From assembly GCA_964441595.1 (NCBI GenBank), contig CAYTXM010000001.1:1-41196 (forward strand): 41,196 bases of DNA, read 5' to 3'. The notes beneath the pieces are model-generated. The model was not told the DNA's origin. It saw nothing but the letters and a program-made list of their open reading frames with translations, and did no database searches. Position 1 is the stretch's first letter. Each line of letters begins with the position of its first letter. Origin of the DNA: an uncultured Candidatus Saccharibacteria bacterium. GTDB lineage: Bacteria > Patescibacteriota > Minisyncoccia > UBA6257. Shown here in pieces: positions 15,060-16,316 of this stretch. A program made the position numbers and the translations under genes.

Positions 15060-15088
15060 TTGACTACTACGATTAAATATGTTATATT
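15060..15088 (+). promoter_or_regulatory. Sigma70-type promoter of the small-gene cassette (copy 1)
   Basis: TTGACT (15060-15065), 17 nt, TATATT (15083-15088). Confidence 0.6.
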
Positions 15089-15092
15089 TATA

Positions 15093-15197
15093 ATATTCTG
15101 TAATGGGATATTTTTAGTTCTTTGAAAAGGGTACCTTCTGATACACACAAGGAAATTGGTTATTATCTTTGTTAGTACCTAGTTTCCTGGTGTGTAT
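15093..15197 (+). promoter_or_regulatory. Structured 5' leader: short hairpin plus U-run at the predicted TSS, then a 57-nt hairpin
   Basis: ATATTC/GGATAT stem with loop TGTAATG plus TTTTT (15093-15115). ATACACACAAGGAAA (15141-15155) pairs with TTTCCTGGTGTGTAT (15183-15197) at 14 of 15 positions. Confidence 0.5.
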
Positions 15198-15228
15198 TAA
15201 TTTTATAAAAAATAGATGGAGGTGAAAT

Positions 15229-15435
15229 ATGAAAAAGTCAATTTGGGCTATTTTAGGGATTGTTTTCAATATCACAATAACGATATTTTTATTGCTAAGT
15301 TTGTTTGGTTTTGTCCCTAGTTTATCAGAAGATAATAGAGATACATTGATAATTATTATAGCAGGTCTATGGATGGTGCAAGTATTAAAGTCTGCCAGCA
15401 AAATGCATGAAGAGGAAGATGAAGATAAAAATTAA
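15229..15435 (+). CDS. Small 2-TM membrane protein with acidic C-terminal tail (holin-like architecture, unknown function)
   Basis: Strong SD GGAGGTG 5 nt before the ATG. 68 aa with two hydrophobic helices and the tail HEEEDEDKN. Identical in both repeat copies. Confidence 0.6.
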   Translation: MKKSIWAILGIVFNITITIFLLLSLFGFVPSLSEDNRDTLIIIIAGLWMVQVLKSASKMHEEEDEDKN

Positions 15436-15462
15436 AAATTTATTGAAAGGTAATGAACAAGA

Positions 15463-15669
15463 ATGAAACGGAAAGTAATTTTGTTACGAAATGATTCAAA
15501 AGAAAGCCAAAAAGCAGAAAAGATTCTAAAAGAAAATAATATTGAATATGCTCAACTTTTCAGTACCGACGGACGTTTACCATGCATAATAAGTCCTGAT
15601 CACGCGTATTCTTTTGATGGCATAGGAGGTGTTCGACTTTTTGTTAGTGGTGCTAAGACAACCAAATGA
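15463..15669 (+). CDS. NrdH/glutaredoxin-like fold protein lacking the CxxC active site (SKES instead)
   Basis: VILLRNDSKESQKAEKILKENNIEY...RLPCIISPDHAYSFDG resembles, from memory, E. coli NrdH ITIYTRNDCVQCHATKRALENRGFDF...QLPVVIAGDLSWSGF. Both cysteines are replaced by Ser. Confidence 0.45.
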   Translation: MKRKVILLRNDSKESQKAEKILKENNIEYAQLFSTDGRLPCIISPDHAYSFDGIGGVRLFVSGAKTTK

Positions 15670-15789
15670 TTTTGTTTTATCTCCGCTAAAGGAAAGAAGA
15701 TGGAAAAAGTAAAGAATAGATATAGAATTAGAGAATTATTAGTTAGATGGAGACATTATTAATGGAACAAAAAAAAGGAGGAAAAGAAA

Positions 15790-16077
15790 ATGAAAGTGTC
15801 GGTAAGAAAAATGAACGAGTTAAACAAAAAAACGAGAAAAGTATTAAAAACCCATCTTACAAAGCTTCCTGAGGATTTTCAAGAAATGTCTTGGAAAGAA
15901 TATATTGAGACCCAAGGGTTATATGGGGTGGAACAATACGTAGTCCAACCCTACACCGCATATTTTTGGATAAAGGGGAAGCTTTTTATTAAGCGTCAGG
16001 GCGATTGTCATCCGATTATACGGATTACCGATTCTAACGTATTACCCCCATATTTTCCTTTACACGATGAAGATTGA
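15790..16077 (+). CDS. Hypothetical 95-aa protein
   Basis: Strong SD AAGGAGG 9 nt upstream. No family recognised. Identical in both copies. Confidence 0.55.
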   Translation: MKVSVRKMNELNKKTRKVLKTHLTKLPEDFQEMSWKEYIETQGLYGVEQYVVQPYTAYFWIKGKLFIKRQGDCHPIIRITDSNVLPPYFPLHDED

Positions 16078-16152
16078 TCTGAAAGGATTTTCCGACCCTT
16101 TGGTAGGTGGCGTAATTTATTATTGTTACTATAAAAAAGGAGAAATGAAATT

Positions 16153-16254
16153 ATGTACGGAGAATTTCCTGTGCAACAGAGAGTCCCTTTGACTAATCAG
16201 GTAGAAACTTTAAGGATTAAAGAGGAAATGTTAAGGAAAATGATTTTTCCTTAA
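16153..16254 (+). CDS. Possible 33-aa micro-protein (MYGEFPVQQRVPLTNQVETLRIKEEMLRKMIFP)
   Basis: AAGGAG about 10 nt upstream. The ORF ends just before the cassette terminator. It is below the ORF-track cutoff. Confidence 0.3.
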   Translation: MYGEFPVQQRVPLTNQVETLRIKEEMLRKMIFP

Positions 16255-16284
16255 ATTAAGTTTATAGTTTAATAAACTTAGAAG

Positions 16285-16316
16285 AAAACCCCATTTTTTA
16301 AATGGGGTTTTATATT
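16285..16316 (+). terminator. Rho-independent terminator of the cassette operon (copy 1)
   Basis: AAAACCCCAT-TTTTTA-ATGGGGTTTT followed by TATATTT. Confidence 0.75.

Follow-up and report, generated by a model that had tools for sequence, protein, structure and literature searches.

A probable accessory cassette with a portable promoter-leader unit in a genome of the candidate phyla radiation

Bacteria of the candidate phyla radiation (CPR, Patescibacteria) have tiny genomes that are mostly derived from metagenomes, and their gene regulation and gene gain are poorly known. A 41,196-nt stretch of DNA from an uncultured Candidatus Saccharibacteria bacterium (lineage UBA6257), referred to here as the window, contains a module of small genes at positions 15060–16316, downstream of a gene for a DEDDh exonuclease. 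The window represents contig C1 of genome G000, which comprises 439 kb in 31 contigs, is 95.5% complete, and has a GC content of approximately 31%. With a probability of about 0.65, the module belongs to a lineage-specific family of accessory cassettes, each of which is headed by a portable unit of promoter and leader. Cassettes of this kind, found within a CPR clade and each with a leader at its head, resemble the promoter-early stem-loops (PeSLs) of T4-type phages and are apparently undescribed as a family.

An earlier note on the same DNA had interpreted the module as a self-contained operon of four small genes with a near-consensus promoter, a structured leader, and a strong terminator, present in each repeat unit. 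All of these parts are found in the window (Table 1); the terminator had been missed by a consensus scan because its T-run is interrupted. The comparison with relatives shows a unit that is indeed bounded but composite, with a promoter and leader that belong to a repeated element.

The promoter-leader element and its distribution

The promoter-leader element, which is approximately 170 nt long, is represented by about 75 instances in related genomes and metagenome loci, and each copy heads a different gene. It occurs twice at locus L012, four times within 3 kb at locus L035, and on many other contigs. The small ORFan genes that it heads number in the dozens and are unrelated to each other; they belong to a clade of bacteria whose genomes measure about 0.4–0.6 Mb. 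The element consists of a −35 box, a spacer, and a −10 box, which are followed by hairpin 1 with a U-run, the box GUUCUUUGAAAA, hairpin 2, an A-rich linker, the motif AAAGGAGG, and an ATG. The promoter is conserved in the alignment of orthologs and in all listed members of the cassette family, as is the sequence of its spacer. The leader of the module (15090–15228) has a folding energy of −38.3 kcal/mol (z = −3.4), with two hairpins within 15090–15201, and its fold is further supported by covariation among the relatives.

Hairpin 1, which begins 4 nt past the −10 box, contains G·U pairs and exchanges between UA and CG (13 of 53 sequences at one pair). Covariation is strong in hairpin 2, where an alignment of 15 instances contains compensatory double changes in 14 of the 26 base pairs. 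About 95% of the alignment cells are paired, as opposed to 37–51% with slid partners, and none of 500 shuffles reaches the observed value. Among the metagenome matches, 19 of the 26 pairs covary. The frequent G·U and U·G pairs of hairpin 2 fit an RNA transcribed from the plus strand but not the complementary strand.

A covariance model of the leader alignment (R1) was applied to the window, the related genomes, and the metagenome loci. In the window, the model recovers both copies with 108 bits (E = 3e-17). Of the 61 related genomes, 10 contain matches, among them four of the six other genomes of the same genus, with at most seven copies per genome; another 55 matches occur in 80 metagenome loci. 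Rfam contains no match to the leader, neither at the gathering score nor at E ≤ 5. The window also harbors a short form of the leader, which heads the gene of a 110-aa GNAT acetyltransferase (23244–23576; PF00583).

A first open reading frame (ORF) is callable behind 74 of 76 leaders. In 41 cases, it encodes at least one transmembrane (TM) segment according to a crude hydropathy scan. Many of these first ORFs encode two-TM peptides of 56–100 aa that belong to several unrelated families; the rest encode soluble proteins of 60–290 aa, and none of the ten soluble cassette proteins tested has a Pfam domain. In another genome of the same genus (G004), five leader-headed cassettes form a co-oriented array of about 5.4 kb (locus L048; contig C3, 3438–8952), which is flanked by a radical-SAM gene and by a methyltransferase gene, the latter itself following dnaX, and has no recombinase nearby. 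Several members of this array carry the motif GGAGC directly upstream of the −35 box. A second family of two-TM peptides, with a length of 75–76 aa and the ending ...RDK(M/T)HRNR..., occurs at L021, L061, and L048 (e.g., L048 4470–4700); it is encoded in first or second position of the cassette, and the partners that follow it vary (123, 125, and 194 aa).

Exchange of genes and leader parts among cassettes

In the sub-family of cassettes to which the module belongs, a conserved spacer, TAAAAATTTGAAAGGAG...ATG, usually comes after the stop codon of the two-TM peptide gene, and the second genes behind this spacer differ between loci. The second gene encodes the 95-aa ORFan p95 at three loci, a 68-aa soluble protein in the window, and unrelated proteins of 162, 76, 117, 112, and 167 aa at five other loci. 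Where G004 carries the orthologous locus of the exonuclease, the peptide is followed by the 162-aa protein and not by p95. The variation of the second genes identifies leader, peptide gene, and spacer as the constant part of the cassette and the partner as exchangeable.

The module of the window departs from its closest relatives by an additional gene. At four loci with the same exonuclease gene (L011, L018, L019, and L020), p95 starts 21–23 nt past the two-TM gene, and at the loci L012–L017, where the cassette stands behind the gene of an HhH-GPD glycosylase, the distance is 26 nt. In the relatives, p95 always follows the two-TM gene directly, and the region of approximately 15451–15773, which carries the gene of the 68-aa soluble protein, is missing at all of these loci. 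Its absence from the orthologous loci indicates that this region is an insertion and that the operon is composite. The gene of the 68-aa soluble protein also stands alone, directly behind a leader, at two other loci (L007 and L009), which are located between housekeeping genes on chromosomal contigs of 209 kb and 138 kb.

Exchange is not restricted to the coding regions. Hairpin 2 of the orthologous locus L018 belongs to a sequence type other than that of the window, which shows that sub-parts of the leader are exchanged as well. In genome G002 of the same genus, the genes gyrB, rpsP, and exonuclease stand in a row; the final portion of the repeat tail follows within about 45 nt, and a gene encoding a 181-aa protein lies further on. 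This site contains neither leader nor peptide nor p95 and represents an empty site. The exonuclease gene itself is patchily distributed in the genus. In the few comparative events that are available, insertions, deletions, and replacements end in repeated units; they comprise the swaps of the second gene, the insertion of the 68-aa gene, the swap of hairpin 2, and the empty site. Between a conserved hairpin element and the 181-aa gene of G002, genes of a 72-aa antitoxin-like and a RelE/ParE-like protein are present (locus L187; contig C20, 2039–2569).

All four ORFs of the earlier note are present, but not all of the properties that had been ascribed to them are retained in the relatives. The two-TM peptide, which has a predicted N-in/C-in topology, has no relatives in a word-index search of 5.8 billion proteins; nine were found via leader-linked loci, resulting in a sub-family of ten sequences with 66–68 aa. 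The acidic tail proposed as a trait of the peptide is not conserved, since the relatives possess a basic tail (DKKKDKK). The same protein collection contains 11 relatives of the 68-aa soluble protein (68–90% identity), as well as five close relatives and one fragment of p95; an exhaustive profile search added two more relatives of p95. Two long repeat proteins (P0022 and P0023) were rejected as spurious relatives of p95. Canonical Shine-Dalgarno (SD) sites had been reported for all four genes, and three of the ORFs indeed have strong sites of the GGAGG type. In the case of the 68-aa soluble protein, however, the ribosome-binding box is eroded (GGTAATG vs. GGAGGTG in the relatives). The ORF of the putative 33-aa micro-protein exists, but it is absent from the two closest orthologous loci (L011 and L018). 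Its product shows a weak likeness to the N terminus of the 88-aa protein of L012 (E = 0.011), and the ORF is probably the truncated remnant of a third cassette gene of this 88-aa family.

None of the four ORFs has a match in Pfam, PHROGs, PADLOC, or NCBIfam (cut-off for Pfam and PHROGs: E ≤ 0.01), which agrees with the earlier view that p95 lacks a recognizable family. The best family match below the threshold was RelB, obtained with the 33-aa ORF (E = 0.075), and profile searches of the PDB yielded only noise. Also the assumption that the genes do not serve a housekeeping function holds up, because a search of 60 related genomes (six of the same genus) yielded neither p95 nor the 68-aa soluble protein and an empty site is present in G002. 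There is evidence of purifying selection: pairwise ratios of nonsynonymous to synonymous substitution rates (dN/dS) are 0.19–0.45 for the two-TM peptide (closer orthologs), 0.22–0.43 for p95, and 0.25–0.50 for the 68-aa soluble protein, compared with about 0.10 for the neighboring exonuclease. Because these values are well below 1, the three ORFs are considered protein-coding and under moderate constraint.

The interpretation of the 68-aa soluble protein as a redox-dead NrdH-like protein is not supported. Its length, the strand-loop-helix-strand order of its N terminus, and a sole alignable piece in glutaredoxin register are reminiscent of NrdH and other glutaredoxins. However, all 12 members of the family have SKES, AAES, or SEES at the position of the CxxC motif, and none of them has a significant profile match, including those to the glutaredoxin and thioredoxin families of Pfam. 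An hhalign comparison with the CPWC glutaredoxin encoded in the window yielded a probability of 0.9%, and the fold is not confidently predicted.

Proposed mechanism and alternative explanations

The module is located downstream of the exonuclease gene at the site that is empty in G002. Between its peptide gene and p95, it has taken up the gene of the 68-aa soluble protein; the third gene is probably truncated, and the whole unit has been duplicated in tandem. Cassettes and their parts would be swapped by homologous or illegitimate recombination at the repeated boxes (the leader, GTTCTTTGAAAA, and the pre-ORF box) and would not require a dedicated recombinase.

Hairpin 1 and its U5 run may act as an insulator or terminator against read-through from upstream genes, or as a 5′ stabilizer. 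Transcripts reading through from upstream would contain the full hairpin 1 with the U5 run and stop. The transcripts of the cassette itself would not, because the predicted transcription start lies inside the 5′ arm of hairpin 1, leaving them without the full hairpin. In the second part of the leader, the box UACCUUC directly precedes hairpin 2 and pairs with the SD sequence in both the minimum-free-energy and the centroid structure. This box is present in all type-A leaders. The predicted probability that the SD sequence is unpaired is 0.01 in the leader of the module, as opposed to 0.25 in shuffled leaders, and the structured 5′ untranslated region (UTR) of this leader type is predicted to occlude the ribosome-binding site of the two-TM peptide. 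The modeled sequestration suggests a post-transcriptional gating of membrane-peptide translation, in which UACCUUC and hairpin 2 would keep the region of GGAGG and start codon shut.

The GGAGG motif itself is remarkable for this lineage. As had been pointed out in the earlier note, the SD sites of the module differ from the surrounding genes: a 4-nt SD core precedes only 7% of the ORFs of at least 150 aa, which corresponds to random expectation (9% at random positions). The 3′ tail of the 16S rRNA (G000, C7:556–2105; locus L178) ends with ...GGUGGUGAAACUUUUCUUUU and lacks CCUCC. Two genomes of the same genus and one of the same family (G001, G004, and G018) share this tail, and a genome from another family of the order (G028) has ACUUUUCUUUU in its 16S tail and likewise no CCUCC. 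Loss of the anti-SD sequence is known from other reduced lineages (PMC6107228). Nevertheless, GGAGG is kept 4–10 nt upstream of the start of the cassette genes across the family. Its pairing with the tail of the lineage amounts to −3.0 kcal/mol, compared with −13.6 kcal/mol for an E. coli-type tail. The complement of the 16S tail is not enriched upstream of core genes and does not appear to be an SD sequence of the lineage's own. The main role of GGAGG may be to pair with the cis anti-SD boxes, or a different factor may recognize it.

The best guess is that the proteins act in association with the membrane, in an accessory or conflict function that varies from strain to strain, and that a membrane peptide is combined with an exchangeable soluble partner. 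The module is neither a housekeeping operon nor a phage lysis cassette. Tentatively, the element may be regarded as a chromosomal "portable header" for ORFans in CPR bacteria that is independent of recombinases and represents a cellular counterpart of PeSLs; in that case, the pair of GGAGG and its cis partner (UACCUUC or UUCUUU) would work as an RNA switch or be targeted by a factor as yet unknown. If this is true, the header (promoter, covarying leader, and often a two-TM gene) is used to acquire, express, and reshuffle ORFans, and the accessory genes would be under a separate translation regime, where GGAGG is not a classical SD sequence. The leader also marks a strain-variable gene set of episymbiont-like bacteria, with candidates for host interaction or conflict. 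The approximately 75 instances provide a concrete cis-regulatory RNA with covariation that can be used in reporters and clade-wide searches, and the conservation of GGAGG in the absence of a ribosomal anti-SD sequence is a testable puzzle of translation initiation.

Several points weigh against the interpretation as a cassette headed by a portable promoter-leader unit. Recombination at the boxes is deduced from a handful of comparative events, and a large serine recombinase is encoded in one genome of the same genus, so that a site-specific mobility of the cassettes is conceivable. Sequestration of the SD sequence clearly exceeds that in shuffled sequences only in type-A leaders but not in type B and was rejected as a property of the whole family. 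The lack of CCUCC in the 16S rRNA leaves the role of the conserved GGAGG puzzling. The transcription start, the termination at hairpin 1, and the translational gating are all predictions. Finally, the AlphaFold2 models, which are based on small alignments, are poor for both proteins (predicted local distance difference test [pLDDT] of 46 for p95 and 54 for the 68-aa soluble protein, where only the N-terminal strand-helix-strand is formed), and the function of the proteins is a guess.

By analogy, the closest counterpart of the cassette element is the PeSL of T4-type phages. PeSLs of T4-type phages were reportedly treated also by Comeau et al. in 2014. In both systems, a repeated intergenic unit of AT-rich sequence, strong sigma-70 promoter, stem-loop at or directly behind the −10 box, SD sequence, and start codon precedes small ORFans in variable regions, and insertions, deletions, and replacements end in the repeated units. 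PeSLs have been described as "mobile regulatory cassettes" that precede ORFans and mediate modular shuffling; their parts are an AT-rich region, a sigma-70 promoter, a stem-loop located at the −10 box or close to it, an SD sequence, and a start codon (Arbiol et al. 2010; PMC2839356). The combination of terminator and promoter is known in PeSLs, whereas it is predicted for hairpin 1 of the cassettes. The cassette element differs from PeSLs by its location in CPR-type chromosomes and not in the hyperplastic regions of T4-type phages, by the additional GUUCUUUGAAAA box and the covarying 26-bp hairpin in the 5′ UTR, and by the constant first gene (two-TM peptide) that is often part of the header. 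The module would thus offer a cellular parallel to the modular gene shuffling of phages.

A toxin-antitoxin-like function or abortive infection, where the two-TM peptide is a depolarizing toxin silenced by the leader and p95 or the 68-aa soluble protein is the neutralizer or sensor, is a rather doubtful alternative. As in type I toxin-antitoxin systems (hok/sok, tisB/istR-1, and aapA/isoA), a small hydrophobic peptide stands behind a structured 5′ UTR that is predicted to sequester its ribosome-binding region. The small genes are tightly packed, their occurrence is patchy and strain-variable, a RelE/ParE-like pair occupies a neighboring position in G002, and the cassettes of L012 lie near restriction-modification genes. 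However, the same two-TM peptide is associated with at least eight unrelated partners, which is unlike cognate pairs, and is predicted to be co-transcribed with these exchangeable genes. Moreover, the leader also heads soluble proteins, and in many cassettes a soluble protein is the only product. The module yielded no conserved gene for an antisense RNA; the sole antisense promoter-like site (15277–15250, minus strand) matches 9 of 12 consensus positions and is not conserved by eye in the alignment of orthologs. Families of type II toxin-antitoxin and defense systems gave no match above cut-off for the ORFs of the module. It is less probable still that the two-TM peptide is holin-like and mediates the non-lytic secretion or release of exchangeable, signal-less proteins in the context of an episymbiotic lifestyle. 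In its size (about 67 aa), its two TM segments, its N-in/C-in topology as predicted, and its strongly charged cytoplasmic C-terminal tail, the peptide resembles class II holins such as S21 of phage 21. Moreover, the gene for the membrane peptide stays the same, whereas the soluble proteins encoded behind it differ and lack an evident signal peptide. This architecture is, however, common to many small membrane proteins. There is no sequence relationship to the holin families of Pfam and PHROGs, no dual-start motif, and no phage context. No gene for an endolysin or muramidase is located nearby, where the neighbors are ORFans, the exonuclease, and rpsP, and other leader cassettes lack any membrane gene. 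Both the toxin-antitoxin-like and the holin-like reading are based on architecture only; the PHROG, PADLOC, Pfam, and NCBIfam searches returned no match that would support the resemblance to holins, toxin-antitoxin systems, morons, or defense modules suggested by the earlier note.

Equally unlikely as a holin-like role is the mobilization of the cassettes by a site-specific recombinase, in the manner of integrons or serine integrases, with hairpin 2 or flanking scars as recombination sites. Integron cassettes likewise form co-oriented arrays of small genes, as exemplified by the five cassettes of G004, and hairpin 2 resembles attC sites in that its structure is kept while its sequence varies; in addition, some array members have the GGAGC motif upstream of the −35 box. 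By contrast with integrons, each cassette has its own promoter, and the hairpin lies between promoter and SD sequence and not 3′ of the ORF. Its pairing is that of a coding-strand RNA, because the many G·U pairs would become C·A mismatches on the other strand, and the junctions fall into the conserved pre-ORF box. G000 encodes neither a serine recombinase nor an integron integrase, its sole tyrosine recombinase being of the XerC/D type. A large serine recombinase is present in only one of five leader-bearing relatives and absent from G004, which has seven copies of the leader. For G000 and its leader-bearing relatives, a serine recombinase or integron integrase was therefore rejected as the mover of the cassettes. 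The origin of the module from a prophage remnant or moron of a phage of CPR bacteria is improbable, although the closest analog of the promoter-leader element is a phage feature and GGAGG looks out of place where the core genes of the genome have no SD sequences. Neither the leader pattern nor relatives of p95 and the 68-aa soluble protein were found in IMG/VR, and searches of INPHARED and PLSDB with the module were equally negative, which leaves the suspected link to phages without a counterpart in these databases. The island contains no phage structural or integrase genes, its GC content is like that of the rest of the genome, and cassettes are located between housekeeping genes on long chromosomal contigs. 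It is hardly conceivable that the small ORFs are chance frames and that the module is only a noncoding regulatory region or an assembly artifact. The ORFs are very short, lack family matches, and have low-confidence structure predictions, and an exact tandem repeat of 2 kb is hard to assemble from short reads. Yet three of the ORFs are intact in relatives (68–97% protein identity) and have a dN/dS well below 1, and the junction in the middle of the duplication has a unique sequence, unlike in a collapsed repeat.

Genomic setting and coordinates

The positions of the module, its parts, and the related elements in the window are compiled in Table 1.

Table 1. Features of the small-gene module and related elements (positions refer to the window)
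Feature	Position	Strand	Remarks
Sigma-70-type promoter, TTGACT-N17-TATATT, with extended −10 (TG)	15060–15088	+	10 of 12 consensus matches
Hairpin 1 (AAUAUUCUG/UGGGAUAUU), followed by U5 run	15092–15112	+	96–98% of alignment cells paired
Invariant single-stranded box GUUCUUUGAAAA	15117–15128	+	Most conserved part of leader, invariant columns in two alignments; search key by which the leader family was recovered
cis anti-SD box UACCUUC	15132–15138	+	Complementary to GGAGGUG (15218–15224)
Hairpin 2, imperfect stem of 26 bp	15140–15198	+	Structure kept, sequence exchanged; at least two sequence types
GGAGG before first ORF	15218–15222	+	Read from sequence
68-aa two-TM peptide with charged C-terminal tail	15229–15435	+	Constant first gene of cassette sub-family
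Conserved spacer/pre-ORF box (TAAAAATTTATTGAAAGG...)	15436–15462	+	Junction where second gene differs between genomes
68-aa soluble protein, N-terminal half strand-helix-strand, no CxxC	15463–15669	+	Independent cassette gene in other genomes
p95, 95-aa ORFan with motifs LPEDFQEMSW and C-terminal LPxYFPLHDED	15790–16077	+	About eight relatives
33-aa ORF	16153–16254	+	SD and start align with 88-aa third gene of L012
Intrinsic-terminator-like hairpin, 12-bp stem (AAAACCCCAUUU/AAAUGGGGUUUU) with A-tract and U-tract	16285–16311	+	z = −3.9
Second copy of module, 100% identical	17306–18562	+	In second unit of the 2246-bp tandem duplication
Short-form leader (hairpin 1, GGUUCUUUGAAAA, GGAGG, without hairpin 2)	23110–23243	+	R1 match at 23141–23196 (31.6 bits)

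The module is part of a 2246-bp unit that is present twice in tandem (14461–16650 and 16708–18896) and comprises the exonuclease gene (PF00929), the small genes with their leader and terminator, and a noncoding tail of about 400 nt. The two units are 100% identical from approximately position 14700 on and about 89% identical over the first 300 nt. At the junction between them (16651–16707), 60 nt remain from the 3′ end of a GNAT gene; this gene stands upstream of the exonuclease gene at L011 and L018. A microhomology, GAAAA(T/A)TT, is common to the junction and the end of the tail at the breakpoint. The unique sequence of the junction argues that the tandem arrangement is real and not a collapsed repeat. 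In the NCBI database, one of the relatives is labeled Candidatus Paceibacterota.

The noncoding tail of each unit (16435–16570 and 18681–18816) contains a promoter-like site, TTGACC-17-TAAAAT, which is kept at L011 and L018. It is followed by tiny ORFs (MQYLKENEN and MLYSEENEC), and the peptide end -SENNG recurs in relatives; the site and the ORFs could represent a micro-peptide or an RNA gene. The longest ORF of the first exonuclease copy starts at a TTG (14382) and overlaps with the end of rpsP. Because homology with the second copy and the relatives starts only at the ATG at position 14475, the 214-aa call is probably an over-extension.

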